DNA from: Candidatus Omnitrophota bacterium
GTDB taxonomy: Bacteria > Omnitrophota > Gorgyraeia > Gygaellales > Profunditerraquicolaceae
Length of the DNA stretch: 64,000 nt
Direction of reading: 5' to 3'
NCBI GenBank assembly: GCA_030650425.1
Contig: JAUSED010000008.1
Coordinates: 4,554-68,553, forward strand
Below, in pieces: positions 21,916-53,889 of this stretch. The translations under genes were made by a program, and so were the position numbers. The notes below the pieces were generated by a model. The model did not search any database, was not told where the DNA came from, and was given only the letters and a program-made list of their open reading frames with translations. Positions within the stretch are counted from its first letter, which is position 1. Every line of letters starts with the position of its first letter.

Positions 21916-21934
21916 AAGTTTCTCAGGTTTCTAT

Positions 21935-32724: not shown

Positions 32725-32783
32725 TACCCCGCGCTTATAAGGAATTGCGCGGGTATGCCCTTATGGGCAAAAGGGAGGAAATT

Positions 32784-37647: not shown

Positions 37648-37696
37648 AGTCATTGCGAGGAGCCCCTGCGTTACGTCGGGGCGACGCGGCAATCTC
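37648..37696. repeat. AGTCATTGCGAG-GAGCCCCTGCGTTACGTCGGGGCGACGCGGCAATCTC hairpin element in the pilin 5' leader
   Basis: Same GTCATTGCGAG head as 3749 and 16034. Confidence 0.6.
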
Positions 37697-37709
37697 AAAA
37701 GGAGGAGAG

Positions 37710-38090
37710 ATGAAAAGGAATAGAAAGGGTTTTACCTTAATCGAGTTGATCATCGTCATTGTAATTATCGGCATCTTGGCGGTTGTCGCTATACCAAAAT
37801 ATTTCGCTAATATTACAACTTCCCGAAAAGCCGCAACATTGCAAAGTTTGCACGCAATTAGCGAAGGCGTTAACGCGTATTTTTCAGCCACTGGAGTTGA
37901 GCTTGCAGATAAAGCAGCGGGAAGTTTCATCGAAACTACTATTGATGGGCAGGTGGTACATTCAGTTGGGTTACCAACCGGTTATAGTTACACAGCGGCC
38001 ACACATACGATTGCCTCTCCTGCGGTAACAGGATGTGGTATTTGTACAATGAATTCTCAGACAGGTGCTTATAGTTGCGCTAGCTGTTAG
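37710..38090 (+). CDS. type IV pilin (prepilin, class III signal)
   Basis: MKRNRKG/FTLIELIIVIVIIGILAVVAIP; Cys-rich C-terminus; ORF track start at 37653 is upstream of the RBS GGAGG. Confidence 0.85.
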   Translation: MKRNRKGFTLIELIIVIVIIGILAVVAIPKYFANITTSRKAATLQSLHAISEGVNAYFSATGVELADKAAGSFIETTIDGQVVHSVGLPTGYSYTAATHTIASPAVTGCGICTMNSQTGAYSCASC

Positions 38091-38109
38091 TAAATTTATT
38101 TGTTTAAGA

Positions 38110-38508
38110 ATGTTTAAGAATATAAGAAATATTGAAAATGGTTTTACGTTAATAGAATTAATAATTGTAGTGGCAATTGTGCTTGCGTTGTCAAGTATTG
38201 CTATAGTTAAGTATGGGAATATTACTGAAAAAGCGCGTTCTGCCGAAGCCTACGCGGTATTGGCTGATATTGCTGCTTCGGAGGTCAGTTATTCAATAGA
38301 ACATAATGACGCTTACACTGGAACTTGGTCAGATTTAGATAGGTATAATGCTGCGCCGGCAAGCGAGAATTTTACCTTTTTTCTTGCCGACGCGGTTAGC
38401 AGCGGGTATGTCAATGCCGCGCATATCACAGGCAGGGGAACAGTGGATTATTATATGTGCATAAGGGGAGGAGAGCGGGGGACCATCGTTCCGACAAATT
38501 GCCCATGA
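38110..38508 (+). CDS. type IV pilin
   Basis: MFKNIRNIENG/FTLIELIIVVAIVLALSSIAIV. Confidence 0.8.
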   Translation: MFKNIRNIENGFTLIELIIVVAIVLALSSIAIVKYGNITEKARSAEAYAVLADIAASEVSYSIEHNDAYTGTWSDLDRYNAAPASENFTFFLADAVSSGYVNAAHITGRGTVDYYMCIRGGERGTIVPTNCP

Positions 38509-38522
38509 GAAATGTAAAAAAA

Positions 38523-38581
38523 GGGGACGGTTCTATTTTTCCGGCGTTAGACTCAAGAAAAATAGAACCGTCCCCTTTTTT
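38523..38581. repeat. variant composite element GGGGACGGTTCTATTTTT ... AAAAATAGAACCGTCCCC + TTTTTT between pilin 2 and pilin 3
   Basis: Variant TIR (CGG instead of CCG) shared with the intragenic copy at 44280-44332. Confidence 0.7.
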
Positions 38582-38585
38582 CCAG

Positions 38586-38984
38586 TTGGCGCGGGGGTTT
38601 ACTCTCATCGAGCTTATCTTGGTGGTTACGGTGATTATTACGCTGGCTTTAATTGCTATTCCCAACTATAATAAGTCAAAAGACAGGGCGATAGAAAAGG
38701 AAGGTATTTCTAACGTCAGGCTGATAGCCGCGGCTGAGAGAATATACAAGATGGAAAGCAGCGCTAATGTTTATGTTGCTTGTGCTAATGCCACTACTTG
38801 TAATACAGCGCTTAATTTGAATTTGAACGCGACTAACTGGAGTTACAAAGTTGAGCTTGCTTCAGGTTCAGGGGTCGCGACCATAACCGCTACTGGATCT
38901 GCTGTCTCTGGTTGTAGCTATACCTTGACGAGCGCCAATTTTGATGCAGAACCAACAGTACCAGCAGGCTCAAGCTGCCCTTAG
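38586..38984 (+). CDS. type IV pilin; start ambiguous (TTG 38586, or ATG 38505 reading through a repeat element)
   Basis: ARG/FTLIELILVVTVIITLALIAIP; ATG 38505 overlaps the previous stop (ATGA) and would add 27 repeat-encoded residues. Confidence 0.7.
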   Translation: MARGFTLIELILVVTVIITLALIAIPNYNKSKDRAIEKEGISNVRLIAAAERIYKMESSANVYVACANATTCNTALNLNLNATNWSYKVELASGSGVATITATGSAVSGCSYTLTSANFDAEPTVPAGSSCP

Positions 38985-39474: not shown

Positions 39475-40092
39475 ATGTTTTCTAAGCCCCTTAAATCCGT
39501 TACCCTGATCGAATTAATCATCGCCATAATCTTGCTCGCGGTAATTATCTTAGGGGTCAACAATATCGGCATCTTCAGCCGCTATCAGGTTGTTTCTTCG
39601 GACCGCCGGGCCAAACTGCAAAATGATGTTTCACGCTGCCTTGAGCATATGACAAAGTATCTTTCTACGGCAATAGGCAATGAGGAGGTGCCTTTGGGAG
39701 AGGATACGGTGGTCTATTTCAAAGAGAACTCTCCCCGCACCATCCTGTCTGTTTTTACGGATGCCAATAGCAATGGTTTAATAGATTCAGGGGGAGCGGA
39801 TTATTGGATTGGGTATAAATTTGACGATTCCACTCATAAATTTACTTATTGTAGCCAATGCCAAAACCGGGCATGCGTGGCATGCTCCGTTACTGAGGAT
39901 GCATTAGCGAACAATATAACCGCATTTTCTGCCTCTAAAAGTGGTACTCCAGCTAACGATTTCTCTAAAGGTAACTATATAAACCTTGGCCTAACTGCTT
40001 GTTGGGATCCTGCTGGGAGCTGTAATACCCCCGATAACCCCAGTGTTACTATGTCTACTAGTATCAGTCTGCCTTCAGTCGCCACCAATTAA
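39475..40092 (+). CDS. minor pilin-like protein
   Basis: 205 aa; SVTLIELIIAIILLAVIILG N-terminus; Cys-rich C-terminal half. Confidence 0.6.
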   Translation: MFSKPLKSVTLIELIIAIILLAVIILGVNNIGIFSRYQVVSSDRRAKLQNDVSRCLEHMTKYLSTAIGNEEVPLGEDTVVYFKENSPRTILSVFTDANSNGLIDSGGADYWIGYKFDDSTHKFTYCSQCQNRACVACSVTEDALANNITAFSASKSGTPANDFSKGNYINLGLTACWDPAGSCNTPDNPSVTMSTSISLPSVATN

Positions 40093-40111: not shown

Positions 40112-40209
40112 AAGGTGCCAGCCTACTTCTAATTTCAGGTATTTTCTTAAAAAAATTTCGTTAGATTTGCTGCCTTCATGCGTCTATTAATAGTGAGGAG
40201 GTGGTAAAT

Positions 40210-40800
40210 ATGTCAAGGAGACAAAGGTTAGTTTTTGAGAGGTCATACTACCATGTTTTTACCAGGGGAAATGACCGCAAGCGGATTTTTAGAAAGGAAG
40301 CAGATTATCAGGTTTTTCTTTCGATAATCAGGAAGTACTTGGAGAAATTCCAGATCTCCATAACAAACTATTGCCTTATGCCTAATCATTTGCATTTGCT
40401 TATTTTTATTGAGACAGGTGGAGAATTGTCTAAGTTTATGAAAGCCGTCTTGCAGGTATATGCCAATTACCATAGGAAAGAATATGGCTCAACCGGGTTT
40501 CTCTATCAAAATAGGTTCAAAAGTTTATTGATCAAGGAGGAGAGTTATTTAATCGAGTGCGCTAGATACATAGAAAGAAATCCATTAAGAGCAAAATTAG
40601 TAAGCGATATTTTTGCTTGGCCATGGAGCAGCCTTTCTTACTATGCAAAAGGAATTAAAGATGGTATAATTACGAAAGTAAATCCGATTTTTGAGGCTTT
40701 GGCAGATACACCCGTGGAGAGAAGAGAAGCCTATATCAAGTATGTCTTACAGGAAAGAGCATATGAACAAATTCTTGATAAAGAATTTGACATAAAATAA
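40210..40800 (+). CDS. IS200-like Y1 transposase of the REP-associated tyrosine transposase (RAYT) type
   Basis: ATG 40210 after GAGGAGGTGG; HuH motif NHLHLL and catalytic Tyr region ARYIERNP; flanked by inverted GGGGACGCTCCCC / GGGGAGCGTCCCC at 40098-40111 and 40839-40851. Confidence 0.8.
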   Translation: MSRRQRLVFERSYYHVFTRGNDRKRIFRKEADYQVFLSIIRKYLEKFQISITNYCLMPNHLHLLIFIETGGELSKFMKAVLQVYANYHRKEYGSTGFLYQNRFKSLLIKEESYLIECARYIERNPLRAKLVSDIFAWPWSSLSYYAKGIKDGIITKVNPIFEALADTPVERREAYIKYVLQERAYEQILDKEFDIK

Positions 40801-42180: not shown

Positions 42181-43671
42181 ATGATAAGAGATAAACGTTT
42201 CGCCCTCGCAATGGCTGGGGTTAGTATTTGTATTTTTTGTTTTGGGTTTTGCCATTTATTATGCGCCGAAAATATTAAAGAACCCTGCGTTGCCGGCACA
42301 TTTTATCCCGCGAGCCCACAAGAGCTTTCTCAGATGGTTGATAACTATCTGGAAGAGGCTAACCCTGAAAAACCAAGCGGTGAAATCTTCGGCTTAATCT
42401 CTCCGCACGCCGGCTACGGTTATTCAGGCAAGGTTGCCGCCTTCGGCTATAAACTTATTAAAAATCAGCCGTATAAAACAGTAGTGATTTTGGGGACAAG
42501 CCACCATTATCCTTTTAGCGGAGCTTCAGTTTATCCCGATGGAGTATTTAAAACTCCGCTTGGCGCGATTACCATAGACGATAAATTTACCCAAAAACTG
42601 CTTAATCGGAATAAGGACGTATACTTTGCTCCGGAGGCATTTAGGGAAGAGCATAGCGTGGAAGTCCAGCTGCCATTCTTACAAAAAACACTTAATCACT
42701 TCAAGATTGTGCCGATAGTTATCGGCGATTGTTCTTTGTCGGCCTGCCAGTCGCTCGCGTCCTTGCTTAAAGAGGCGATTGGTGAGCGCAGAGATGTTTT
42801 GGTGGTTGTTTCTACCGATATGTATCATGGTTACGATTATGATGAGGCCAATAAAATCGACGTGCTTACCCTCGCCGCTATCAAAAATATGGATGCCGAA
42901 GCCCTTTATTGGGCCTTGCGCGACGAAAAGATGCAGCTCTGCGGCGGATTTGGCGTGGTGACGGCATTGATTTTAGCCAAAGGCCTGGGCCATGATCAAA
43001 TAAGCGTATTGAAACATACAAATTCCGCAGAAGTTACCGGTAACCAGAAGAAGGGGATCTGGACCGTCGGATATGCAAGTTGTGTGATTGACCAGCCAAA
43101 GGGAGAAAAGGCTATGTTAAATAAAGCTCAGAGAAAAAGATTGCTTGAAATCGCGCGCAGCGCAATCGAAACTTATCTAAAAACCGGTAAGAAGCCGCAG
43201 TTGAACGAGACCGATCCGTTGCTTTTAAAGACGATGGGGGCTTTTGTTACCCTGAAGAAACACACAGAGCTGCGTGGTTGCATTGGAAATCTCGTAGGTG
43301 AAAAGGCTTTATATTCTACGGTGAGCGATATGGCGGTTGAAGCTGCGACAGAGGATTACCGTTTTCGTTCTCACCCGGTAGAATTATCCGAACTTAAAGA
43401 TATCGAAATCGAAATTTCTGTTTTATCTCCGATGGTAAAAATTGATAATCCTGATCAAATCAAGCTTGGAACACACGGTGTTTTGATACGTAACGGCCCT
43501 AGGAGCGGAGTATTTCTTCCTCAGGTAGCCACTGAAACAGGCTGGTCAAAAGATGAATTTATGTCTAATCTGTGCATCCACAAAGCTGGCTTAGATGCAG
43601 ACGCTTGGAAAGACAAGTCTACCGAAATCTATATCTTTACTGCCGAAGTATTTTCAGAGAAAGACAAATGA
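42181..43671 (+). CDS. MEMO1-family (AmmeMemoRadiSam protein B-like) domain fused to AMMECR1 domain, with N-terminal signal/TM segment
   Basis: 496 aa; hydrophobic/Cys-rich N-terminus; MEMO motifs [13 protein letters not shown] and [10 protein letters not shown]; AMMECR1 signature [18 protein letters not shown]. Confidence 0.75.
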
Positions 43672-43688
43672 AAAATAGAAACGGTCCC
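43672..43688. repeat. solo right terminal repeat AAAAATAGAAACGGTCCC
   Basis: Immediately after the MEMO-AMMECR1 stop codon. Confidence 0.55.
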
Positions 43689-43709
43689 AAGTTTCCCCAG
43701 GTATTTAAA

Positions 43710-44495
43710 ATGCATAGATTCTTTTGTACAACTTCAGATATCACAAGTACCGAAATAATCATTAAGGATAAAGAACAGGCGCACCATATAAGAGATGTCC
43801 TCAGGCTTAAGCCGGGTAAACAGGTGGAGGTATTTGATGAAAAGGGAAATGAATATAGCTGCGAGATTCGCGAAATAAAAGATAAAATCTATCTTGAGAT
43901 TAAAAATAAAATTGCCGCCGATAAAATAAGCCAGAGAATAAAACTAACTGTAGCTTGCGCCCTGCCCAAGAAGTCTAAGCTAGACGATATCATTGATAAA
44001 CTTGTCCAGTTGGGAGTACACAGGATCATCCCGTTAAAAACAGAACGCGTAATCGTTAAGTTAGATAAATATAAAGAAGCAGGCCGGCTTGAGCGCTGGA
44101 GAAAAATCGCGCTTAGCGCCGCCAAACAAAGTAAGAGAAATGACTTACCTGTAATTGAGCCGGTTCAGGATTTACAAAAGGTTATCGCGCGATCGCAAGA
44201 ATTTGATTTAAAGCTTATACCGTATTTAGGAGGAGAGCGTAAAAATCTAAAGGATGTTTTAGATAAATTCTTAAAAAAAGGGGACGGTTCTATTTTTTCG
44301 GCATCAGACTCTAGAAAAATAGAACCGTCCCCTTGTTTTTTAATTCTTATCGGCCCGGAAGGAGATTTCTCTGAAGCAGAGGTAAAGCTAGCCGTAGCCG
44401 CGGGATTTATTCCGGTAACCCTTGGTGATTTAGTTTTACGCGTGGATACCGCGGCCATCGCGGCGGCCAGCTTCATTACTATGTACACCTCGTAG
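43710..44495 (+). CDS. rsmE: 16S rRNA (uracil1498-N3)-methyltransferase RsmE with an in-frame repeat insertion
   Basis: ATG 43710 (MHRFF...); C-terminal SPOUT motif LILIGPEGDFSEAE...LGDLVLRVDTAAIAA; residues GDGSIFSASDSRKIEPSP are encoded by a repeat element at 44280-44332. Confidence 0.8.
   Translation: MHRFFCTTSDITSTEIIIKDKEQAHHIRDVLRLKPGKQVEVFDEKGNEYSCEIREIKDKIYLEIKNKIAADKISQRIKLTVACALPKKSKLDDIIDKLVQLGVHRIIPLKTERVIVKLDKYKEAGRLERWRKIALSAAKQSKRNDLPVIEPVQDLQKVIARSQEFDLKLIPYLGGERKNLKDVLDKFLKKGDGSIFSASDSRKIEPSPCFLILIGPEGDFSEAEVKLAVAAGFIPVTLGDLVLRVDTAAIAAASFITMYTS
44280..44332. repeat. variant composite element GGGGACGGTTCTATTTTTT ... AAAAATAGAACCGTCCCC inside rsmE, in frame
   Basis: Encodes GDGSIFSASDSRKIEPSP just before the GPEGD SPOUT motif. 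Confidence 0.7.
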
Positions 44496-44515: not shown

Positions 44516-45733
44516 ATGCCTACCGTAAAATTTCATACCTTAGGTTGTAAAGTCAATCAATACGATACTCAAAGTATCAGAGAACGTTTTTTGGAACAGG
44601 GATTCAGGGAAATCCGCGGCCGGGCTAAGCCAGCGGATTTCTACTTGATCAATACCTGTACCGTAACAGCGGTGGCCGACCAGAAATCCCGCGGAATTAT
44701 CCGGCGCTCGATTAAGGAAAACCCCAAAGCCAAAATAATCGTTACCGGATGCCTGGTTAAACAAGATAACGCTAAATTAGCTAAGCTAAAAGGCGTGAGT
44801 CTCATTATAAGCAAAAGTTTTTTTAGCGAAGGTATAAGCGATTTCTGCTCGCATACGCGAGCTTTCTTAAAAATTCAAGATGGTTGCGATAATTTTTGCT
44901 CTTATTGTAAAGTACCTTTGGCGCGCGGCAGGTCAAGAAGCAAACACTTAAATGACCTGATCAAGGAAGCCAATCGTTTGAGCGATAAAGGCTTTAAAGA
45001 GATTGTGCTTACCGGGATCTGTTTAGGCGCCTATGGCCGGGATTTAAGCCCAAAAATAGATTTAGTCAAGGCGATAGACGCGTTGGAAAAGATCGATGGA
45101 ATCTTGAGAATCAGGTTAAGTTCGATCGAGGCAGGGGATGTTACGGAAGCCTTAATCAACAAAATAGCCAAATCGCATAAGCTCTGCCGGCATCTGCATA
45201 TTCCTATTCAAAGCGGCAATGATCAAATCTTGAAAAAAATGCGGCGCAGATACACGCGCAAATTTTATCTTAAGCTGATCAAAAAAATAAGAAATAAAAT
45301 TCCAGAGGCGGCTATTACTACGGATTGCCTGATTGGTTTTCCGGGAGAGCTCCAGAAACATTTTCGGGATACCCTAGATTTAGTGAAGCGTATCTTACCG
45401 TTAAAAGTGCATATCTTTCCTTATTCGGCAAGAGAAGGGACCACTGCCTATTTAGAGCCGGCTTTTGGCTCCTTATCAGCGAAGGATATTAAAGAGCGTA
45501 TCATCAGCCTTAAGAATGTCGCTCGTTCTTGCTCTCAAGATTATCAGAAACGTTTTCTTGGAAGAGCGCTGCCTGTTCTCTTTGAAGGCAATTCCAAAGA
45601 AAAAAAAGATTATTGGGAAGGTTATACCGATAATTATATCAAGGTTTTATTTAAGTCCCGGCGGATTTTAAAAAATAAACTTGTTTGCGTCAAGCTTGAA
45701 AGTATTATTGGAGATTATGTTATAGCTGCTTAA
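44516..45733 (+). CDS. radical SAM methylthiotransferase, MtaB/MiaB-like
   Basis: 405 aa; N-terminal MTTase Cys triad, radical SAM CDNFCSYC, C-terminal TRAM-like domain. Confidence 0.78.
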   Translation: MPTVKFHTLGCKVNQYDTQSIRERFLEQGFREIRGRAKPADFYLINTCTVTAVADQKSRGIIRRSIKENPKAKIIVTGCLVKQDNAKLAKLKGVSLIISKSFFSEGISDFCSHTRAFLKIQDGCDNFCSYCKVPLARGRSRSKHLNDLIKEANRLSDKGFKEIVLTGICLGAYGRDLSPKIDLVKAIDALEKIDGILRIRLSSIEAGDVTEALINKIAKSHKLCRHLHIPIQSGNDQILKKMRRRYTRKFYLKLIKKIRNKIPEAAITTDCLIGFPGELQKHFRDTLDLVKRILPLKVHIFPYSAREGTTAYLEPAFGSLSAKDIKERIISLKNVARSCSQDYQKRFLGRALPVLFEGNSKEKKDYWEGYTDNYIKVLFKSRRILKNKLVCVKLESIIGDYVIAA

Positions 45734-45747
45734 AACACGGAAAACAC

Positions 45748-45845
45748 GGGACCGTTTCTATTTTCCCTAGTAGGGGACACTTTCCAACAGCCAGTAAACG
45801 CGTGTAGGAAAGTGTCCCCTGAGCGAAAAAAATAGAAACGGTCCC
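45748..45845. repeat. composite element (TIRs GGGACCGTTTCTATTTT / AAAAAAATAGAAACGGTCCC) with GTAG-GGGGACACTTTCC ... GTAG-GAAAGTGTCCCC
   Basis: After the MtaB-like gene. Confidence 0.75.
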
Positions 45846-45859
45846 AAGTTTTATTATAC

Positions 45860-45888
45860 TTGACAAAATGTGCCGATAATGGTATAAG
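45860..45888 (+). promoter_or_regulatory. strong sigma70-like promoter TTGACA-17-TATAAG for the major pilin, followed by ~150-nt 5' UTR
   Basis: -35 45860-45865, -10 45883-45888. Confidence 0.45.
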
Positions 45889-46036
45889 TAAAAAAGTAAA
45901 ATTAAAGGTGGCTTTGGCGCGGTAATAAGCGACCTCTTAAAAGAAGCTTGGAAGTTCTAATTTTACAATAACCAATAAGAGGCCAAGCAGAGAGCGCGAA
46001 AAGTTAATCTTACCTTAGAAAGGGGGATTTACAGAG

Positions 46037-46438
46037 ATGAATAGAAAAGGTTTTACGCTCGTCGAAATCATGATTGTCGTAGCGATCATCGCGTTATTAG
46101 CCGCTATCGCTATACCTAACTTGTTAAGCGCCAGAATGACCGCGAATACCGCGGCAGCCAAGGCGAATGTGCGTAGTTTATCCACAGCCGCAGAGACATT
46201 CTCTACCGCTAACAACGGTACGTACCCGTCTTCAGTGGCCAATTTAACTACTTTTATTAGTGCGGCAGGTTCTTATTGCGCGGATGCAGGCGGCGCGACA
46301 ACCGCAGTTCAGGGTTATAACTATGCTTGTACTTTGACTGCCGGCGGTTACTCTGTAGTAGCTGCTCCAGTGACGGTAGGTACAACTGGTACCACAACTT
46401 ACACCGCAACAACAGGAGGAGTGCTCACGCCATTATAA
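46037..46438 (+). CDS. pilA: type IV major pilin (PilA-like)
   Basis: MNRKG/FTLVEIMIVVAIIALLAAIAIPNLL; Thr-rich C-terminus; strong promoter, long 5' UTR and strong terminator. Confidence 0.88.
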   Translation: MNRKGFTLVEIMIVVAIIALLAAIAIPNLLSARMTANTAAAKANVRSLSTAAETFSTANNGTYPSSVANLTTFISAAGSYCADAGGATTAVQGYNYACTLTAGGYSVVAAPVTVGTTGTTTYTATTGGVLTPL

Positions 46439-46464
46439 AAGCACGCTTCTTATGAAGAGTTAGA

Positions 46465-46500
46465 AGGAGGAGAGGATAAAATTCTCTCCTCCTTTTTTTT
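46465..46500 (+). terminator. rho-independent terminator after the major pilin
   Basis: AGGAGGAGAGG-ATAAAATT-CTCTCCTCCT + TTTTTTTT. Confidence 0.7.
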
Positions 46501-46504
46501 CCGG

Positions 46505-46571
46505 TCATTGCGGGTAATTAAGTTGTAGCGGACATTTAAATGTCCGCTACAACTTCGCCGTTCGCAATGAC
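46505..46571. repeat. GTCATTGCGGG ... GTTGTAGCGGACATTTAAATGTCCGCTACAAC ... CGTTCGCAATGAC nested palindrome
   Basis: Inner palindrome recurs (GTAGCGGACACTTAAGTGTCCGCTAC) inside the downstream gene at 48223-48252. Confidence 0.7.
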
Positions 46572-46585
46572 GATAATTTACTATA

Positions 46586-48550
46586 GTGAATAAATCTAAA
46601 TTAATTTTATTTATAGGTATCCTTTTCATTCTCGCCTTATCCTGCGCGGCCGCCTATTCCAATTCCGTACACAATCCTTTTATCTGGGACGACGATGCCT
46701 TAGTGGTTAAGAATCCGCTGCTAAGCAACTGGTCGAATCTGCCGAAGGTATTCACCAGCGACCTGTATCCCGGGGTAACTGCCGGCTCAAACTTTTATCG
46801 TCCGCTGCAGACCATATCTTATATCTGGGATTATCATTTTTGGCAGCTGGATCCGTTTGGCTACCACCTTTCCAATATCATCCTGCAGATTTTAGTTTCT
46901 TTGCTCGTTTTCTTACTTACCCGGATTATGCTCAAGGATACAAAAATCGCTTTGGCCGCGGCTCTGTTATTTGCCTTAAATCCGCTGCATACGGAAGCGG
47001 TAACCTATATTTCCGGAAGGGCGGAGATGCTTATGGGATTATTTCTACTTGCTTCCCTAATTTTATTTATTAAGGGGCATCGAGTTTTTTCTCTTTTGAG
47101 CTTTATCTGCGGCTTGCTCTCTAAGGAGTTATCCGTAGTTTTTCCGTTAGTTATTTTAGCATATTTATTTTACTATAAGAGAGAGAAGCTAAAGAAGGCA
47201 CGCTACCTCCTAAAATCAGTTTTACCATTTTTGATTATAGATTTGATCTATTTAATCTTGAGGTCCGGTTTATTGCATTTTGCGACTATCAGGCCGCCGG
47301 CATTGACTAAATACCCCTTCATTTTAAGAGTGATAGTCTTTCCTAAAGTAATGCTGACCTATCTAAAGTTATTTATCCTTCCGGTCGATTTGCATATGAG
47401 CCGGACATTGGCGCGTCCGGTGAATTTTTTAAGCCTATTCTGGAGTTGTTTTTTTCTCGGGATGATCTTTGTGTTTTGCGCCTATATTTTAAAAAACTAT
47501 AAGCAAAGAAAGACAGCCGCGTTTATGCTCTGTTGGTTCTTGATTTTTCTTCTTCCTCAATCCGGGATCCTGCCGATTAACGCCTTTATCGCCGAGCACT
47601 TTATCTATCTGTCATCGATCAGCGTTTTTATCTTACTGGCTTATTTATTGCGTAAATATTTAAGGAGGGGACTTTTTATTTTTTCCGTCATCGGGCTTGC
47701 GCTATTCTACGCTATGCTTACTTATACGCGTAACTTTGACTGGAGCGATCCTTTAGTATTTTATTCCAAAATAATCAAATATTCTCCGGATAGCTTTCAG
47801 GCGCATAACAATTTAGGGTTGCAATACGAATACCGGCATGACTTGAGGAAAGCCATCTTGGAATATAAGCGGGCATTGGAAATAGAGCCTAAGCTGATTG
47901 AGGCGCGTTCTAATCTGGCTAATGCCTATTTTAAACTGGGTAAATTTAAGGACGCGCTTTCGGAGTACGCCCAAGTAGAGAAGAGTGCTCTGCGGGAAAA
48001 GGCCGGAGAGCTGCAGAACAATATCGGTTGTATTTATGAAGTTGAAGGATTGTTGGATGAAGCCTTAGATAGGTATAGGCTCGCTTTACGTTTAGACCCT
48101 GCCTTGAACTTTACGCATTTCAATATCGCCAGGATTTACGCGGCTAAGGCTAAGTTTGATTTGGCCGCCCAAGAGGTAATAAAATCGCTTCCTGAGCTAA
48201 GTCTTACTGATTTTTATAGCAGCCGTAGCGGACACTTAAGTGTCCGCTACGGAGATAAGGATAGATATGCTCAGGTAATTAGTGCCTACGTGAAATCGTC
48301 AAAAGCATTTCAATCGGGCGTAATATTCTATAATGATTTAGGCGTGAAGTTCGCATCTGAAAACCTGTTGGAGGGAGCAATTGCCGCGTTCAAAAGGGTG
48401 ATTGAGCTGGATCCGCTTTACGCTGACGCGCATTTTAATCTGGGGCTTGCCTTTTGGAAAAAAGGCTTAAAAAAAGAGGCGATTTTTGAGTTCAAGAGAG
48501 CGCTTAAAATAAATCCTAATCACTTGAATGCCAAAGGGTTCTTAAGATAA
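46586..48550 (+). CDS. polytopic membrane protein with C-terminal TPR repeats (PMT_2/TMTC-like glycosyltransferase candidate)
   Basis: 654 aa; GTG start; ~11 TM helices in first ~400 aa then TPR units; contains in-frame 30-bp palindrome at 48223-48252. Confidence 0.65.
   Translation: MNKSKLILFIGILFILALSCAAAYSNSVHNPFIWDDDALVVKNPLLSNWSNLPKVFTSDLYPGVTAGSNFYRPLQTISYIWDYHFWQLDPFGYHLSNIILQILVSLLVFLLTRIMLKDTKIALAAALLFALNPLHTEAVTYISGRAEMLMGLFLLASLILFIKGHRVFSLLSFICGLLSKELSVVFPLVILAYLFYYKREKLKKARYLLKSVLPFLIIDLIYLILRSGLLHFATIRPPALTKYPFILRVIVFPKVMLTYLKLFILPVDLHMSRTLARPVNFLSLFWSCFFLGMIFVFCAYILKNYKQRKTAAFMLCWFLIFLLPQSGILPINAFIAEHFIYLSSISVFILLAYLLRKYLRRGLFIFSVIGLALFYAMLTYTRNFDWSDPLVFYSKIIKYSPDSFQAHNNLGLQYEYRHDLRKAILEYKRALEIEPKLIEARSNLANAYFKLGKFKDALSEYAQVEKSALREKAGELQNNIGCIYEVEGLLDEALDRYRLALRLDPALNFTHFNIARIYAAKAKFDLAAQEVIKSLPELSLTDFYSSRSGHLSVRYGDKDRYAQVISAYVKSSKAFQSGVIFYNDLGVKFASENLLEGAIAAFKRVIELDPLYADAHFNLGLAFWKKGLKKEAIFEFKRALKINPNHLNAKGFLR
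48223..48252. repeat. perfect 30-bp palindrome CCGTAGCGGACACTTAAGTGTCCGCTACGG inside the TPR-membrane gene, in frame
   Basis: Encodes SRSGHLSVRYG. Confidence 0.7.
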
Positions 48551-48659
48551 TCCACCCACGAGATGTAGGGGCACGGCATGCCGCGCCCCTACATCGCAGT
48601 TGTACATGGGTAACAAAAAGTAATTGCTAAAAGCAGCCTTTATGTTAGAATAAATTAAC

Positions 48660-49109
48660 ATGAAAAATAAGCTTTCCGGGTTTAGCTTAGTCGAAATAAT
48701 GTTTGTAGTTTTTATTATTTCTTTCCTGGTTTCGCTGGCGGTAGTAGAAGGAGTGGTACTTAGGAAAAAAGCTAACGAAGCGAATGCCCAAGCCAATTTA
48801 AAATATATAGCTACGGGTTTCGAAATATACGCTGCCGGCCACGGAGGCGCGTATTCTTCCGGTAATGAAACTGACTTGCAGTTTTTAGTAGAGGCCAAAT
48901 GCGCCTCGCAGGATTTAGTGAGCATCGGCCAGATAGGGAATTTCCGCTATGTCGTTGATTCGATAACGCCTACAGGGTATGATATCCGGGCGATGGCGGT
49001 AAATACCGCTTTAGCCGACCATAATTATCAGATTTCGACTGGAGGCCTGATCAGGCGAAGCGACAGCTCGGGCACTCAAGACGCGGACTTTAAAGATTAC
49101 ACCTCATGA
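48660..49109 (+). CDS. pseudopilin (GspG/ComGC-like)
   Basis: MKNKLSG/FSLVEIMFVVFIISFLVSLAVV; paralogous to the next ORF. Confidence 0.65.
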   Translation: MKNKLSGFSLVEIMFVVFIISFLVSLAVVEGVVLRKKANEANAQANLKYIATGFEIYAAGHGGAYSSGNETDLQFLVEAKCASQDLVSIGQIGNFRYVVDSITPTGYDIRAMAVNTALADHNYQISTGGLIRRSDSSGTQDADFKDYTS

Positions 49110-49522
49110 AAAATAAGAGAGCCAGAAGTTTTGTGGTTATAATGATTGTCTTAGCCCTCTCTGCCTTGACTTTGAGAATGCTTATAGGAGAGATTATCAG
49201 CGTAACGAGCATCCAAAATGAGTCCAACGCTCAATCCACACTTAAACTTATTTCTACGGCTTTTGAGAACTATGCTAAGGATAACCAGGGAGCCTACCCG
49301 GCGAAAATTTCTGTTTTGATTCAAGCTAAGCCAGCCTATTTAGATAAGGATTATATAAAACTGTCTCCGATAAAAGGCTACAGTTATAGCTGCAGCCGGC
49401 TGGACGCGGCAGGATATAGCTGTCAGGCGTTTCCTAGCAGGTGTAAATTGACCGGTAAGCTGAATTTTAGCGTCACTACAGGTAGTTTATTAATCTCAGA
49501 TGACTGCGGAACAAGGGAATAA
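49106..49522 (+). CDS. degenerate pseudopilin paralogue
   Basis: 138 aa; hydrophobic N-terminus without canonical G/FxxxE; shares NE(A/S)NAQ(A/S)xLK(Y/L)I(A/S)T(G/A)FE motif with 48660 ORF. Confidence 0.5.
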   Translation: MKNKRARSFVVIMIVLALSALTLRMLIGEIISVTSIQNESNAQSTLKLISTAFENYAKDNQGAYPAKISVLIQAKPAYLDKDYIKLSPIKGYSYSCSRLDAAGYSCQAFPSRCKLTGKLNFSVTTGSLLISDDCGTRE

Positions 49523-49545
49523 ACAGCTGGAAACTCGAAATCCAA

Positions 49546-50577
49546 ATGCTAAATATTATTTCTAAATTAAAAGATAACTTTTCCGGGGAGAGGCTTTCTG
49601 TTGGATTGGATATCGGGAATTCCACGGTAAAGATAGTCAAGCTTAAATTTATTAAAGACGAAGTTACCCTCTGTGGCTTTGACATAGAGTCATCGACGTT
49701 GGAATTAAACGAGGTATTAAAGAAAATAAAACAGGCGCATGGCGCCGAATTGGTGAATATATCCGTTTCAGGGGCTCAAACCGTCATCCGCTACGCGAAT
49801 TTTCCCAAAATGAACGCTTCAGAATTAAGGCAGGCCTTGAAATTTGAAGCCCAGAAGCATATACCTTTTTCTGTTTCCGAAGTCAATCTTGACGGTTACA
49901 TTTTAGAAGATGATCTTCCTGATAATAAGATGTTGGTTTTAATCGCCGCGGTAAAAAAGGAACTAGTCTCCAGCCGCCTGAAGTTGTTGGAAAGCGTAAA
50001 TCTTGCCGCGAATTCCGTGGATATGGACTCTATCGCTTTGGTTAACGCCTTTAATTTTAATAATCCATCGGTTAGTAACGGGGAACATAAAGCAGCCGCC
50101 TTGTTGAATATCGGAGCTACCGTGAGCAATCTGGATATATTGGAAGCCGGTATGCCGCGCTTAAGCCGGGATATGCATATTGCCGGCAATACTTTTACCC
50201 ATAAAATAATGGATGTTTTCGGCATTGATTTTAATAATGCCGATAAGCTTAAGTTTGATCCCGAAAGCGATCCTGAAAAGAAGAATAAGATAAACGCGGC
50301 AGTGGAATCAGTGCTCTCCAATTTGGCTACCGAAATAAGGACATCTTTTGATTACTATGAGAGCCAGAATGCCTCTTCAGTGGCCAAGATTTTCTTAAGC
50401 GGCGGAGCTTCAAAATTCAATGGGTTAAAAGATATGCTTTCCCGGCTTTTGGGTTTAGAAGTGGAGAATTGGGATCCGCTTAAGCAGTTGCAGATTAATC
50501 AGGCTATCGGAGCTGAAAAAATTAAGGCAGCATCAGGCCAATTGGCGGTTGCCGTCGGACTGGCTTTACGCGCGTAA
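49546..50577 (+). CDS. pilM: type IV pilus assembly protein PilM
   Basis: 343 aa; actin-like ATPase fold motifs (GLDIGNSTVKIV, LNIGATVSNL). Confidence 0.8.
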   Translation: MLNIISKLKDNFSGERLSVGLDIGNSTVKIVKLKFIKDEVTLCGFDIESSTLELNEVLKKIKQAHGAELVNISVSGAQTVIRYANFPKMNASELRQALKFEAQKHIPFSVSEVNLDGYILEDDLPDNKMLVLIAAVKKELVSSRLKLLESVNLAANSVDMDSIALVNAFNFNNPSVSNGEHKAAALLNIGATVSNLDILEAGMPRLSRDMHIAGNTFTHKIMDVFGIDFNNADKLKFDPESDPEKKNKINAAVESVLSNLATEIRTSFDYYESQNASSVAKIFLSGGASKFNGLKDMLSRLLGLEVENWDPLKQLQINQAIGAEKIKAASGQLAVAVGLALRA

Positions 50578-50578
50578 G

Positions 50579-51178
50579 ATGATTGAGATTAATTTACTCC
50601 CGGAAGAGTTAAGAAATAAGGTAGTTAAGCTAAAGAAGCCCGAAGCCACGATAACCGCGGCTGGATTAGAGCCGAAACATTTTATTTTACTGATACCGCT
50701 TGCCTTTGGAATTTTAATCGGCCTCCAACTCATTATCGGCCTTCTTGGCCTAACCAAGTCTGTTCAAGCGCGTATGTTAGATGGGAAATGGAGCAGTCTT
50801 GAGCCCGAGCGAAAGGCGCTGAAAGAATTCAACGATAAATATAATCTTGTTTCCGAAGATACGCAGATAATACAACAGTTAATGCGGACCAGGGTTAATT
50901 GGTCAGAGAAACTCAATAGTCTTAGCTTAAATCTTCCCGCTGGAGTTTGGTTTGAAGAAATCTTGGTTAATTCCAAAGAATTGGCCTTGCAGGGCGCGGT
51001 AGTATCCCTGAATAAGGAAGAATTGAGTTTGATTAAGCAGCTAATCGATAATTTGAAGAATGACCCCGCTTTCTTTAGAGATTTTAATTACCTCGAAATG
51101 GGTTCGGCTAAAAAGAAGGCGTTTGGAAGTTACGATATTACCGAGTTTACCTTGAACGCCAGCCTTAAGGCAAAATGA
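50579..51178 (+). CDS. pilN: type IV pilus assembly protein PilN
   Basis: MIEINLLPEEL N-terminus, single TM, periplasmic domain. Confidence 0.72.
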   Translation: MIEINLLPEELRNKVVKLKKPEATITAAGLEPKHFILLIPLAFGILIGLQLIIGLLGLTKSVQARMLDGKWSSLEPERKALKEFNDKYNLVSEDTQIIQQLMRTRVNWSEKLNSLSLNLPAGVWFEEILVNSKELALQGAVVSLNKEELSLIKQLIDNLKNDPAFFRDFNYLEMGSAKKKAFGSYDITEFTLNASLKAK

Positions 51179-51780
51179 TTAACTTAGTGGAGAAGATTAA
51201 AAGTATTAAGATATTAGACCAGTTCGATCTGGACAATAAGAAGCTGATGCTGATCGTGTTGATCAGCGTGGTTGTATTTTATATAGACTTTAATTTTATT
51301 CTTAAGGCACAGGTTAGATGGCTCGCTAAGAGCGGGACGAAGGTGGAGAGGTTCAAGAAAGACTTGGATAATTTTAAAATAGATCTAAAAAAGATGCGGG
51401 ATTTAGAATCCAAGCAGACTCTTGCTTCCCAAAAGCCTGTTTCCAACGCCAAGAGCATTATTCCCGCGAATCAATTTTCGAGCTTACTGCAGGATATTTC
51501 TAGAACAGCCAATCATAATGATGTGAGGATCCTGCAGATAAAACCTTCCCGGATGCCGACGGAGAATCAGAGTAATAAGGCTAAGGTCCCGGTTAACCTT
51601 AATCCATTTATGGTTAATTTGGATTTATCCTGCGCTTACCATAACTTGGGGAAGTTTATTAATGAACTGGAAAACTTACAGGCTTTTGTTAGCTTGCGGG
51701 ATATTAAGATCGAACCGCAGGATGATAACTATCTTAAACAGAAGGTTAACCTTGCCTTGGTTACATATGTTAAGAAATAA
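51175..51780 (+). CDS. pilO: type IV pilus assembly protein PilO
   Basis: 201 aa; TM then coiled-coil; gene order. Confidence 0.62.
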   Translation: MINLVEKIKSIKILDQFDLDNKKLMLIVLISVVVFYIDFNFILKAQVRWLAKSGTKVERFKKDLDNFKIDLKKMRDLESKQTLASQKPVSNAKSIIPANQFSSLLQDISRTANHNDVRILQIKPSRMPTENQSNKAKVPVNLNPFMVNLDLSCAYHNLGKFINELENLQAFVSLRDIKIEPQDDNYLKQKVNLALVTYVKK

Positions 51781-52126
51781 AATATTGCTTATTTTATTTG
51801 TTGGCCTTTATAGCTTTTCTTTCGCGCAAGGCGATTTTATCTATCAGTCAAAAGGAAAACGCAATCCTTTTATCCCTTTAGTGAGCAAGGACGGCAGGTT
51901 AATGAAGTTGGACAAGGATGAGGGGCAAGGGAAATCCGATTTATTAGTGGATGGTATCATTTACGATAAACAAGGCATCTCCTATGCTTTAGTTAACGGG
52001 AGGGTCTTGGGAATCGGTGATTACGCGGGTGAATACAGGGTCTTAAAGATTACCAAAGATAAGGTAGCCTTTCTTAAAGATGATCAGATAAGGGAGGTTT
52101 TGATAAATAAGGAGGGGGAAAATTGA
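51767..52126 (+). CDS. pilP: PilP-like lipoprotein
   Basis: ATG 51767 gives signal peptide MLRNKILLILFVGLYSFSFAQG; RNPF motif and beta domain similar to 32215 ORF. Confidence 0.55.
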   Translation: MLRNKILLILFVGLYSFSFAQGDFIYQSKGKRNPFIPLVSKDGRLMKLDKDEGQGKSDLLVDGIIYDKQGISYALVNGRVLGIGDYAGEYRVLKITKDKVAFLKDDQIREVLINKEGEN

Positions 52127-53889
52127 AAAAATATACAATCCTTAGTTTTTTATTCTGGGCCTCATTATTTATTTTTTCCGTCTCTTCATTGGCTGAAAAC
52201 GCGCAGGTAGCTGTAGTTGTCTCTGCCCCGGGAGGTGTTGATACTTCCGGTATCGCGGAGAACCAAGTTAGAGAAAAAGAAAGCACGGCCCAGATATTGA
52301 GCGCCGCGGATAATGTAACTTTGGATTTTAAGGAAGCGGATATTCAGAACGTGCTTAAGATTATCTCTTATAAGTCCGGGGTGAACATCGTGAGTACCCC
52401 TGAAGTCTTAGGTAATGTAACCATCAGAATGCTGGATGTGCCTTGGGAGACGGCGCTGGATGTAATCTTGAAGACTTATGGCTATAGCTATCAGAAACAG
52501 GGGAATATAATCCTGGTCACTAAAATGGAGAATATGGCTAAACTGCAGGCAGAGGAACCGCTGCAGACCGAGGTCTTCACCCTTAAATACCTAGATGCTC
52601 AGGACGCGCAGAAGATCCTTATTCCCTTGCTTTCTCCGCGTGGAAAAATATCGGTATTGTATGCCCGGGGACAGAAGGGATGGCAATTCGGGACTTTTAA
52701 GATCGGCAAGGAGACCGTGGCCAGCGCTGCCTTGGCAAGAGAAAAACAGGAAGCTAAGTCTGAAACTGTTTCTATGGAAAATACCGCTAGCGGAGAACTT
52801 GTCTCGCGTAAGGCTGAATTTGATTCTACGGTAAAATCAAAAGTGCTTATTATAACCGATACCGCTCCATCCTTAGACAGGATCCGTAATCTGATCATAC
52901 CGACTATCGATAAAAAACCCAAACAGGTATTGATTGAAACCAAGATCTTGGAGGTTAAAAGGGATAAGCTAAAAGATTTGGGGATTGATTGGGGCTTAGG
53001 TAACGCCGGCGCCACCACACTTATCCCGCCGACGACTAAAACAGCGGGCGGGACCGTAGGCGGCCGCGTGTTAGGCGGCGGCGCGGGGACAAGTAAATTT
53101 ACTCCCGATGCTTTTAACCCTCTGGAGGGGACGACCGCTTTCCCGGGGACATACCCTTACGTAGCCGGAGCGACCTTTGTGTTTAATAAGCTCGGAGGGG
53201 TGGAATATCAGGTAGTCTTGCATGCTTTAGAGGAAGACGCCAACACAAACACCTTATCCGCCCCGCGTATCCTGACCTTGGATAATCAAGAGGCCTCTAT
53301 TTTAGTCGGTTTCCATACCCCAATCCTTAGCTCCAGCGTCACCGCCGGAGACGCCAATTCCGGGCCCACGCAGACGCAGACCCTGGATTATTATCAGGAG
53401 ATCGGTATCCGGTTGAATGTCGTGCCGCAAATCAGCGACGAGGGTTACATCAATATGATTATCCATCCGAGCGTCACCTCTTCGACTTCCAATGTGACGG
53501 CTACGAATGTCGCCGGCACAGGGGATGACCAAACCACAACTACAGTTGATTATCCGATTATCGACGTGCGCGAGGCGCAGACGCAGGTCTTAATTAAAAA
53601 TAACGATACCATTGTTATCGGCGGCCTGCTTAAGGACGTCAAGACCAAGGAAAAAATCGGCGTCCCCTTCCTGATGGATATTCCCTGGTTGGGAAAGTTT
53701 TTTACCCGTCAGACGGATAATGTGCAAAAAATTGACCTGTTGATATTTATTACGGCGAGGATAGTTGAAGAGGGCGAACTTAGTAAAGACGAATTAGCCA
53801 GATTTAAAGAAGGCGTTGATTACGCGGCGCCAGTTGAGAAAAGCAAAGCAGTTAAAAAGAAGGGCTGGGATTCTTTGTTAGCCCCTTAG
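52123..53889 (+). CDS. pilQ: type IV pilus secretin PilQ (second copy)
   Basis: 588 aa; signal peptide; secretin C-domain (VIGGLL...VPFLMDIPWLGKFF...LIFITARIV). Confidence 0.85.
   Translation: MKKYTILSFLFWASLFIFSVSSLAENAQVAVVVSAPGGVDTSGIAENQVREKESTAQILSAADNVTLDFKEADIQNVLKIISYKSGVNIVSTPEVLGNVTIRMLDVPWETALDVILKTYGYSYQKQGNIILVTKMENMAKLQAEEPLQTEVFTLKYLDAQDAQKILIPLLSPRGKISVLYARGQKGWQFGTFKIGKETVASAALAREKQEAKSETVSMENTASGELVSRKAEFDSTVKSKVLIITDTAPSLDRIRNLIIPTIDKKPKQVLIETKILEVKRDKLKDLGIDWGLGNAGATTLIPPTTKTAGGTVGGRVLGGGAGTSKFTPDAFNPLEGTTAFPGTYPYVAGATFVFNKLGGVEYQVVLHALEEDANTNTLSAPRILTLDNQEASILVGFHTPILSSSVTAGDANSGPTQTQTLDYYQEIGIRLNVVPQISDEGYINMIIHPSVTSSTSNVTATNVAGTGDDQTTTTVDYPIIDVREAQTQVLIKNNDTIVIGGLLKDVKTKEKIGVPFLMDIPWLGKFFTRQTDNVQKIDLLIFITARIVEEGELSKDELARFKEGVDYAAPVEKSKAVKKKGWDSLLAP

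Follow-up and report, generated by a model that had tools for sequence, protein, structure and literature searches.

The stretch analyzed here is a 64-kb window of DNA from a Candidatus Omnitrophota bacterium that holds two type IV pilus loci, with all pilus genes on the forward strand. In a type IVa-like pilus system divided over two loci, locus 2 (45860-53889) is the half with the major subunit, and it is arranged as a pilin-accessory cassette. The cassette type is a familiar one, that of TfpW, here with a TMTC-like enzyme in a new phylum; its new parts are a pilin-specific structured leader RNA and a conserved pilin-like protein, pp138, that lacks the prepilin cleavage consensus. In the account that is favored, and that we regard as probable, the cassette combines the pilin with a dedicated TMTC-like pilin glycosyltransferase and uses the motor encoded by locus 1. 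Omnitrophota are uncultivated, mostly ultra-small bacteria with a presumed habit of attaching to other cells or preying on them; type IVa pili count among the few organelles with which they might contact a host (PMC10066038). Locus 2 runs in the order REP-like palindrome, promoter, leader, pilin, terminator, long palindrome, membrane enzyme of the GT-C type with tetratricopeptide repeats (TPRs), pp149, pp138, PilM, PilN, PilO, PilP-position protein and secretin, and every element that a first-pass annotation had placed in 45860-53889 is present at its coordinates:

45860..45888, forward strand: pilin promoter, with -35 TTGACA at 45860-45865, a 17-nt spacer and an extended -10 TGG-TATAAG at 45880-45888.
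45897..46036, forward strand: structured leader RNA (5' untranslated region, UTR) of the pilin gene, predicted to span about 140 nt; 117.8 bits with covariance model R1.
46037..46438, forward strand: major type IVa-like pilin, 133 amino acids (aa); Pfam N_methyl at E 8e-9, NCBIfam.
46464..46501, forward strand: intrinsic terminator behind the pilin gene, with a 12-bp stem, 3-nt loop and U8; hairpin at 46464-46494.
46504..46572, no strand assigned: long palindrome, with perfect 18-nt arms at 46520-46555 without a loop, plus outer complementary arms.
46586..48550, forward strand: TfpW-like/TMTC-like predicted GT-C protein with periplasmic TPRs, 654 aa; transmembrane (TM) residues 1-385, DDD at 35-37, TPRs at about 390-650.
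48660..49109, forward strand: pp149, a pilin paralogue; Pfam N_methyl, canonical prepilin N-terminus SGFSLVEIM.
49106..49522, forward strand: pp138, pilin-like, 138 aa; non-canonical RARS-FVVIMIV with Ser at -1 and no Glu at +5.
49546..50577, forward strand: PilM; PF11104 at 3e-46, TIGR01175 at 171 bits against a 133-bit cutoff.
50579..51178, forward strand: PilN; PF05137 at 21.6 bits against a 22.8-bit cutoff, position conserved.
51175..51780, forward strand: PilO; PF04350 at 4.9e-11.
51752..52126, forward strand: protein in the PilP position, 124 aa; signal-peptide-like N-terminus, 33% identity to the 169-aa protein of locus 1.
52123..53889, forward strand: secretin of PilQ/GspD type, 588 aa; Pfam Secretin at 2.7e-44, plus STN and N0.

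Two samples of related loci, designated below by L-numbers (L003, L037 and so on), were drawn from other genomes and from metagenomes. The enzyme-based sample was obtained by scanning one genome per GTDB species, which returned 55 loci. The leader-based sample relied on a 26-nt leader pattern that yielded 89 metagenome sites and thereby avoids choosing loci via the enzyme. Linkage to the pilin was scored by mapping the proteins of the window onto the sampled loci.

By homology, fold and motifs, the 654-aa protein is a candidate bacterial TMTC-like GT-C/TPR enzyme. A full-length AlphaFold2 (AF2) model built with 45 homologues has a predicted local distance difference test score (pLDDT) of 86.6, and the membrane domain modeled separately reaches 88. 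When the latter is compared with the PDB using Foldseek, the first 30 matches are without exception GT-C enzymes (or PIGU, which is GT-C-like), including STT3, ArnT, PglB, Pmt4, Pmt1/2, DPY19 and EmbB, with a best E of 3e-4 and a query-normalized TM-score of up to 0.56; on the strength of this model the membrane domain is assigned the GT-C fold. The full-length model matches TPR proteins only, OGT first, and its TPR part is similar to the TPRs of OGT and SPY. The predicted topology, from the positive-inside rule and the AF2 model, comprises 11 TM helices with the N-terminus inside, the TPRs outside and K/R-rich cytoplasmic loops, and the long loop between TM7 and TM8 bears an amphipathic helix that does not span the membrane. 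Two aspartates in periplasmic loop 1, D35 and D36, are invariant in the 45 homologues, as are R72, P73, H94, R145, H270 and H338. This is a large family (2,508 cluster representatives at E<=1e-30, or 73,586 for the wider family at E<=1e-3), and in databases its members carry the label 'tetratricopeptide repeat protein' only.

The placement of this enzyme among TMTC-like proteins follows from profile homology to DUF1736+TPR proteins, topology, the DD and the TM3 motif. TMTC1-4 are protein O-mannosyltransferases of the GT-C/PMT clan with a DUF1736 signature, 11 TM helices, a DD after TM1, lumenal TPRs and the TM3 sequence LLFAVHPIHT (PMC7801869). The family profile aligns over 373 columns with P0315, a bacterial protein that carries a precomputed PF08409 (DUF1736) annotation plus TPRs (hhalign 99.3%, E 4.7e-20), so that the whole membrane domain is profile-homologous to a bacterial protein of this kind. 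P0315 was reached via relatives of a deltaproteobacterial pilin-adjacent protein, many of which are bacterial PF08409+TPR proteins; no Pseudomonas protein appeared in the search from that protein. The 11 TM helices, the inside N-terminus and outside TPRs, the DD of loop 1, the non-membrane helix of the TM7-TM8 loop and the TM3 consensus LLFA(V/L)xP(I/L)HT are further shared traits, the TM3 motif LLFALNPLHTE of the window protein resembling LLFAVHPIHT of TMTC3. The differences are that the window protein and 14 sampled relatives (15 homologues tested) fall below the Pfam DUF1736 model, PF08409, that the protein is bacterial and periplasmic rather than located in the ER, that its presumed acceptor is a pilin instead of a cadherin domain, and that it has fewer TPRs. 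A PDB sequence search with the protein and with the family profile returned no match.

The second point of comparison is TfpW, the GT-C pilin arabinosyltransferase/oligosaccharyltransferase of Pseudomonas aeruginosa group IV strains (Pa5196, PA7). TfpW has 646 aa, a cytoplasmic N-terminus, 11 TM helices and a periplasmic C-terminal TPR domain; pilin glycosylation requires its DDX motif in periplasmic loop 1, its gene lies directly downstream of pilA, and the best templates for its membrane and TPR parts were ArnT and OGT, respectively (bioRxiv 10.1101/2020.04.19.049825). The protein studied here agrees with TfpW in size (654 vs 646 aa), in the 11 TM helices, orientation and periplasmic TPRs, in a DDx of the first periplasmic loop (DDD 35-37), in having ArnT and OGT as the best structural templates of the two parts, in the location of its gene after pilA with an intervening terminator, and in being an optional accessory tied to one pilin type. 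This likeness is one of architecture, the DDx motif and gene position, as taken from the published description. Unlike in the TfpW system, no D-arabinofuranose (DPA) biosynthesis genes were found among the scanned open reading frames (ORFs) of the window and no tfpX-like gene for a protein with three TM helices nearby, and the cassette continues with two pilin paralogues, one of them without a prepilin consensus, in a different phylum. TfpO/PilO and PglL of Pseudomonas, Neisseria and Acinetobacter are pilin-modifying membrane enzymes as well; they are O-antigen-ligase-like, lack TPRs and transfer preassembled undecaprenyl-pyrophosphate-linked glycans. Their family is unrelated to the present one, and the Pfam scan gave no Wzy_C-type match here. 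The gene tfpO lies directly after pilA, behind a terminator, and Rho-independent terminators after pilA are common in pilin-accessory cassettes, where their presumed role is to adjust how much accessory protein is made relative to pilin (PMC11841053).

The genomic linkage of enzyme and pilin extends well beyond the window. Of the 56 GTDB-species loci with room for one, 45 have a pilin homologue no more than 600 bp upstream of the GT-C gene; adjacency holds at all loci but one with at least 40% GT-C identity and at several with 30-36%. At the same time, the genes upstream of the pilin/GT-C pair vary among loci (miaB-like, Fic, PilP-like). PilMNOPQ are wholly lost in four loci (L009-L011, L015) and reduced to PilQ in three others (L005, L025, L030), and the trio of pilin, GT-C gene and pp138 is kept where PilMNOPQ are missing (L009-L011). 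Leader-sampled sites without the GT-C gene run pilin-(pp149)-pp138-PilM and onward, and the enzyme is thus an optional, pilin-type-specific accessory and not a core assembly part.

The pilin type in question is defined by the C-terminus. The window pilin has the N-terminus MNRKG-FTLVEIM, whose KG-FTLVE agrees with the G-F(T/S)LxE motif of prepilin cleavage and methylation, two conserved cysteines, the C-terminal motif TGTTTYTATTGGVLTPL and the C-terminal peptide ...TYTATTGGVLTPL; its nearest solved sequences are the pilins of Geobacter, Myxococcus and Thermus. The C-terminus TYTA[ST]TGGVLTPL (preceded by ...TTG.x) is found in 24 of 25 GT-C-linked pilins and in 2 of 23 unlinked ones (Fisher p = 3e-10, for samples that are not phylogenetically independent), and the Ser+Thr content is 22.4% in linked and 16.3% in unlinked pilins. 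Within the GT-C-linked type, pilin orthologues are 65-86% identical, vs 48-66% for the enzyme. The C-terminus had been described as Thr-rich, and threonine does make up 10 of the last 23 residues, but these belong to a strongly conserved motif and not to a loose low-complexity tail; the segment may thus be structural as well as, or instead of, serving as acceptor. Taken together, the GT-C fold, the invariant DD, the homology to TMTCs, the TfpW-like architecture and gene position, and the tracking of the pilin C-terminal type leave the 654-aa protein well supported as a candidate pilin O-glycosyltransferase, as initially proposed, but on other grounds than those given at that time.

A deltaproteobacterial metagenome-assembled genome (L060:7719-14323) carries three tandem prepilin genes followed by genes for membrane proteins of 754 and 687 aa, with no TPR domain detected in either. 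The larger protein shares homology with the Omnitrophota enzymes in its N-terminal domain (hhalign 99.6%); pilin-linked GT-C genes of the family are thus not confined to Omnitrophota.

Upstream of the pilin gene, a promoter and leader of about 140 nt are conserved across species. The earlier estimate of a 5' UTR of about 150 nt is close to the predicted length of about 142 nt, and the checks of structure and riboswitch content suggested for it showed a covarying long-range fold and no matching Rfam family. The leader is a covarying structured RNA and a well-supported candidate for a new RNA family, with the following predicted helices:

45905-45915 paired with 46000-46011, forward strand: leader helix H1.
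45917-45918 paired with 45996-45997, forward strand: leader helix H2.
45931-45938 paired with 45977-45984, forward strand: leader helix H3.
46013-46016 (CCUU) paired with 46023-46026 (AAGG of the Shine-Dalgarno sequence, SD), forward strand: leader helix H4.

The nested long-range structure was derived on 15 sequences and then built into a covariance model. It appeared only with RIBOSUM scoring on sub-groups and was subsequently confirmed by the covariance model; default RNAalifold on a MAFFT alignment of the leaders recovered only the 4-bp SD hairpin, and the single-sequence fold is not more stable than shuffled sequences (z = 0.35). In 1.02 Mb of genome loci the model gave 35 matches, all ending at a pilin start codon and several of them from distant genomes outside the seed, and 83 further matches were obtained in 80 metagenome loci. 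The resulting 118 leaders always lie directly upstream of pilin genes. Likewise, 88 of the 89 metagenome sites with the leader pattern have a prepilin ORF within 25 nt downstream, the remaining site being cut by the end of its contig. In the genome set, 89.5% of cells can pair, vs 37-58% when the 3' partners are slid, and double changes occur in 16 of 24 leader pairs, values that were reached by none of 500 shuffles. The independent metagenome set gave 89.0% pairing vs 37-57% after sliding, 144 compensatory cells vs 48 +/- 6.5 in shuffles, and covariation at all eight pairs of the central helix. All leader alignments were fitted to the model, which somewhat inflates the pairing figures; the lower values after sliding and the diversity of pair types nevertheless speak for a real structure, with a conserved apical loop, AGUUCUAAU.

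Such a leader could be a stabilizer, a protein-binding site or a riboswitch. A reading with close to an even chance is that it merely stabilizes an abundant transcript, much as the ompA 5' UTR does, and senses no signal. The long-range helices start about 9 nt from the predicted 5' end, as a stabilizer would have it, and the covariation itself and the lack of fit to any known riboswitch family agree with this reading. Four lineages (L009-L011, L028), which also lack PilMNOPQ, manage without the leader and have a UTR of only about 25 nt. On the other hand, the leader contains highly conserved unpaired blocks in excess of a stabilizer's need, namely a 5' AAGG, the apical AGUUAUAAU, CGC..AAAAG..AAU and an ACCUU just before the SD, which are invariant and not assessable by covariation because these positions never vary. 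Within them, the invariant CCUU has two possible partners, the AAGG of the SD and the 5' AAGG, again without covariation support, and this alternative pairing is a possible translational switch. The most far-reaching interpretation is entertained only tentatively and is probably not correct: that the leader represents a new class of cis-regulatory RNA, riboswitch-like or protein-binding, which would gate pilin translation via the triad of AAGG, CCUU and SD-AAGG, occur Omnitrophota-wide and exclusively with pilins, and form with the TMTC-like enzyme and an uncleavable pp138 a module undescribed in cultured bacteria.

A structured leader at a pilin gene has a precedent in pilA1 of Clostridioides difficile, which has a c-di-GMP-II riboswitch upstream. 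The two are alike in that a long structured 5' leader directly precedes a major pilin gene and in that components of cyclic di-GMP (c-di-GMP) signaling accompany the pilus genes (MshEN on PilB; GGDEF and HD-GYP in L037), and unlike in that the Omnitrophota leader has no match to c-di-GMP riboswitches or any other Rfam family at E<=1. At this threshold, Rfam returned hairpin-type noise only over 45600-46700, and at the gathering score the whole window contains a single tRNA as its only Rfam hit. In three loci (L110, L120, L124), two leader+pilin units are arranged about 690 nt apart, as tandem pilins each with its own leader, and one metagenome contig (L108:5438-11409) has seven consecutive pilin-like matches.

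The cassette encodes no motor of its own. Locus 2 contains no T2SSE or T2SSF match, and tblastn with the locus-1 ATPase and platform against the 64-kb window finds only these proteins themselves, so that the reported absence of PilB, PilT and PilC from locus 2 holds, for additional copies, across the window. The only ATPase and platform genes of the window lie in locus 1, which comprises the following:

30151-31701, forward strand: PilM-PilN fusion, GspL-like.
31703-32218, forward strand: PilO-like protein.
32215-32724, forward strand: PilP-like protein, 169 aa.
32745-34361, forward strand: secretin.
34457-36190, forward strand: PilB-type assembly ATPase with a c-di-GMP-binding MshEN N-terminus (63.7 bits against a 38-bit cutoff).
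36228-37475, forward strand: PilC/GspF platform protein.
37653-38090, 38065-38508, 38457-38984 and 39475-40092, forward strand: minor (pseudo)pilins, three or four in number.

The alternatives initially offered were a shared ATPase and platform or a distinct apparatus, and gene order in relatives favors sharing. In L030, a single cluster comprises a histidine kinase, a response regulator, PilB, PilC, five pseudopilins, a PilM-N fusion, PilO-like and PilP-like proteins, the pilin, the GT-C/TPR enzyme, pp138 and PilQ. In L004, L034 and L022, PilB, PilC, pseudopilins and PilMN lie directly upstream of the pilin and are followed by a second PilMNOP and a single secretin, and L037 has GGDEF, an MshEN protein, two PilB, HD-GYP, PilC, the pilin, two GT-C/TPR genes, pseudopilins and PilMNOPQ. 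From these contiguous clusters it follows that locus-2 genes belong with a locus-1-type motor, and a single PilB/PilC motor shared by loci 1 and 2 appears most likely.

A rather unlikely alternative is that the locus-2 genes make up a secretin-dependent machine of their own, whose ATPase and platform would be encoded elsewhere in the genome, and that locus 1 is an independent type II secretion system (T2SS)-like apparatus (GspL/M/C/D/E/F with pseudopilins). The window, which covers 64 kb of a 288-kb contig, does contain two complete and divergent MNOPQ sets that are 22-33% identical, and thus old paralogues, and in this lineage two full sets could mean two machines; L037 illustrates that several PilB paralogues are possible in Omnitrophota. 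Locus 1 also has T2SS-like traits, with its GspL-like PilM-N fusion, GspE and GspF scores near those of PilB and PilC, and a secretin of its own. In general, the prepilin, PilM, PilO, secretin, PilB-type ATPase and PilC/GspF are all recognizable as in other type IVa pilus and T2SS gene sets, from which the present system differs by its two loci, the duplicated, divergent MNOPQ with a single motor, the fusion protein, PilP-like proteins that match no family, and the absence from the 64-kb window of PilT, PilD and a second PilB. A separate machine is, however, disfavored by L030, which joins a locus-1-type motor, minor pilins and PilMN with a locus-2-type pilin, GT-C enzyme, pp138 and PilQ, and by L004 and L034, where both alignment-complex sets coexist with one ATPase and one secretin. 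Moreover, locus 1 of the window has no obvious major pilin with a promoter of its own, and the two loci are only about 6 kb of housekeeping genes apart, beside a gene for a probable REP-associated tyrosine transposase (RAYT). Besides this gene, the interval contains a radical-SAM gene, a tRNA and Memo/AMMECR1, rsmE-like and miaB-like genes.

The MshEN domain of the ATPase and the genes of L037 suggest that piliation is under c-di-GMP control. Besides its two PilB paralogues, the pilus cluster of that locus (L037:52-6422) encodes a GGDEF protein, an MshEN protein that stands alone and a response regulator with HD-GYP.

With a shared motor, the cassette may be envisaged to work as follows. The strong, conserved sigma-70-type promoter would drive transcription of the leader of about 140 nt and the pilin gene; most transcripts would stop at the intrinsic terminator, and read-through would yield low levels of the downstream genes. 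The TPR domain of the enzyme would hold the periplasmic globular domain of the membrane-anchored pilin while the GT-C domain takes a sugar from a polyprenyl-phosphate donor and attaches it to pilin Ser/Thr, as TfpW acts on pilin and TMTCs on cadherin domains. Polymerization of the modified pilin would fall to the locus-1 motor, PilB ATPase and PilC platform, with the minor pilins of locus 1 as primers, and the pilus would leave the cell through a secretin. The scheme builds on what the analysis demonstrates, namely gene content, fold, motif conservation, the linkage of the genes, the conservation of promoter, terminator and leader, covariation in the RNA and the contiguous clusters of relatives; in it we infer the enzymatic activity, the pilin as acceptor, the identity of the donor, terminator read-through and ATPase sharing. 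If a dedicated TMTC-like enzyme does glycosylate the pilin, pilin-glycosylation cassettes would not be limited to a few proteobacterial pathogens, and the poorly understood TMTC branch of GT-C would gain bacterial, genetically linked enzyme-substrate pairs. It would also become possible to better annotate proteins that are now labeled only as TPR proteins, and the leader offers a handle on the control of pilus production in Omnitrophota.

To the duplicated alignment genes and the pilus genes missing from the window, several further points must be added that weigh against this account. Residues 1-395 of the enzyme have no Pfam match, PMT_2 included, even at E<=10, and the protein as a whole matches no Pfam or NCBIfam glycosyltransferase model; the initial PMT_2 (PF13231) label thus does not fit the protein itself, though 2 of 15 homologues do reach this family (up to 2.5e-8), which counts in favor of the account. 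The profile of the enzyme family is unrelated to the PMT_2 protein encoded in the window itself (hhalign 1.8%). The YX6PFX7P motif of TfpW (periplasmic loop 4) is unmatched in residues 1-420, as are YX6PX5P and a relaxed pattern. Only 25 of 48 leader-sampled metagenome sites, namely those with more than 1 kb of downstream sequence, have the GT-C gene beside the pilin; the association with pilin type may partly reflect shared ancestry, and the conserved Thr-rich C-terminus could be purely structural. Finally, paralogues below 37% identity are often found as tandem pairs away from any pilin (L051-L053), and the wider family therefore has other substrates.

This last observation, together with the sheer size of the family at E<=1e-3, lends some plausibility to a different acceptor, such as pp138 or pp149, the minor pilins, the secretin, another envelope protein or a lipid, in which case the gene would follow pilA through co-regulation alone. 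It is also true that pp138 is a more constant neighbor of the pilin than the enzyme is and that lipid A is the substrate of ArnT, which ranks among the closest structural matches. We nevertheless judge a non-pilin target improbable: adjacency to the major pilin persists over deep divergence while the flanking genes change, the presence of the GT-C gene tracks the pilin C-terminal type, loci without this gene retain pp138 and pp149, which hence need no GT-C enzyme, and both the nearest sequence relatives (TMTC-type) and the contextual analogue (TfpW) modify proteins. Very improbable, lastly, is a non-catalytic assembly factor whose TPRs act on the secretin or pilus like the pilotins PilF, PilW and Tgl: no separate pilotin gene accompanies the pilus cluster within the window, and in NCBIfam the TPR part matches Tgl (82.6 bits) and PilW (53.2 bits) best, but these scores are far below the respective cutoffs (225 and 154 bits) and usual for unspecific similarity among TPRs, the protein has 11 inner-membrane TM helices and no lipobox and is hence not a lipoprotein, the DD and other GT-C residues are invariant, and the gene is kept with the pilin in the secretin-less loci L009-L011 and absent from many loci with PilMNOPQ (L079, L102, L123).

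In the favored cassette, the two short genes behind the enzyme had been described as paralogous pseudopilins. Both are indeed pilin paralogues, 31-32% identical to the pilin (pp149 31%, pp138 32%) and to each other, but pp138 lacks the prepilin consensus and has no N_methyl match in Pfam or NCBIfam. Its motif [KR]SF[VI]xIM is kept in about 35 orthologues, and pp138 is the most constant neighbor of the pilin, present even where the GT-C gene or PilMNOPQ is missing. Since Ser at -1 and the lack of Glu at +5 are conserved in the orthologues, it is unlikely to be a normal substrate of prepilin peptidase and may instead be an uncleaved, membrane-anchored pilin-like assembly factor. Among the alignment and secretin genes, the names PilM, PilO and secretin are supported by Pfam, and PilN by a sub-threshold match with an INLLP motif; its true start is likely ATG 50579, which gives the canonical MIEINLLPEE. 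The name PilP, in contrast, lacks family support, as the protein in this position has no Pfam match and a PDB search gave spurious matches to designed proteins only. The secretin scores 260.9 bits with the PilQ equivalog TIGR02515 (cutoff 284) and 256 with GspD (cutoff 351).

The signals flanking the pilin gene agree with the initial description. The promoter is present, and its layout CTTGACAA-N17-TGnTAnAnT is kept in about 31-33 of 36 orthologous loci; a generic promoter/terminator scan picked up neither this promoter, because its -10 ends in G, nor the pilin terminator. The latter is an inverted repeat and strong, as had been claimed, with a folding energy (dG) of -18.3 kcal/mol, and 26 of the 39 orthologous loci have an equivalent hairpin with U-tract; a copy of the repetitive extragenic palindromic (REP)-like element stands in place of the terminator, directly after the pilin stop codon, in L003 and L023. 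The impression of a highly expressed pilin comes from the promoter, leader and terminator signals and finds no support in codon usage: relative to four ribosomal-protein genes, the codon-adaptation index places the pilin 56th of 57 ORFs, in what is a weak and uninformative test here. The GT-C/TPR gene starts with GTG without an obvious SD, 147 nt after the pilin gene, and the long palindrome between the pilin terminator and this GTG is a single copy in the window. Two additional promoters were considered and rejected. A second pilin promoter at a TATAAT-like conserved block within the leader has no usable -35 at the proper spacing, and TTCGCA-N15-TATAGT as a promoter of the GT-C gene overlaps the GTG start codon.

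The region upstream of the promoter and the interval between the two loci carry candidate REP-associated elements:

45741..45852, no strand assigned: REP-like palindrome, with outer arms at 45741-45764 / 45829-45852 and inner arms at 45772-45789 / 45803-45820.
40201..40800, forward strand: probable RAYT, between the pilus loci; NF047646 at E 1e-20, 74 bits against an 80-bit cutoff.

The palindrome lies between the miaB-like gene and the pilin promoter and probably acts as a terminator or insulator. Its arm motif GGGACCGTTTCTATTTT occurs in 17 copies in the window vs 0.31 expected, mostly as inverted pairs, with copies at 14407, 21778/21899, 26702, 29802/29858, 37477/37558, 38523/38559, 38992/39077, 43672, 44280/44316 and 45748/45829. 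The same repeat is also present in other Omnitrophota genomes (L003, L016, L023), and L001 has a Y1_Tnp gene in the position of the RAYT gene. A variant at 44280-44332 lies inside the rsmE-like ORF 43572-44495 and is read through in frame (...GDGSIFSASDSRKIEPSP...), resembling the in-frame palindromic insertions known from Rickettsia. Another, at 38523-38575 inside ORF 38457-38984, probably marks a mis-called upstream start of this pseudopilin gene, the true start of which probably lies after the REP copy.

Other genes of the window include a GT2 glycosyltransferase gene (21872-22702) similar to polyprenyl-phosphate-sugar synthases (AglJ, PpgS, dolichyl-phosphate hexose transferase; all below cutoff). 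It overlaps the start of 22674-23879, which encodes a 401-aa GT-C protein with a Pfam PMT_2 match and no TPR, 24 kb upstream of the pilin-linked enzyme and unrelated to it at the profile level. With this pair, the organism can plausibly make a lipid-linked monosaccharide donor as used by GT-C enzymes. Upstream of locus 1, 26692-29097 encodes an 801-aa, nearly all-TPR protein that is YfiO/BamD-like and whose start overlaps the uvrA stop and a REP copy. In addition, a single 293-aa ORF at 13515-14396 combines Polbeta-type nucleotidyltransferase and HepT-like RNase domains, which normally are the separate halves of an MNT/HepT toxin-antitoxin pair.

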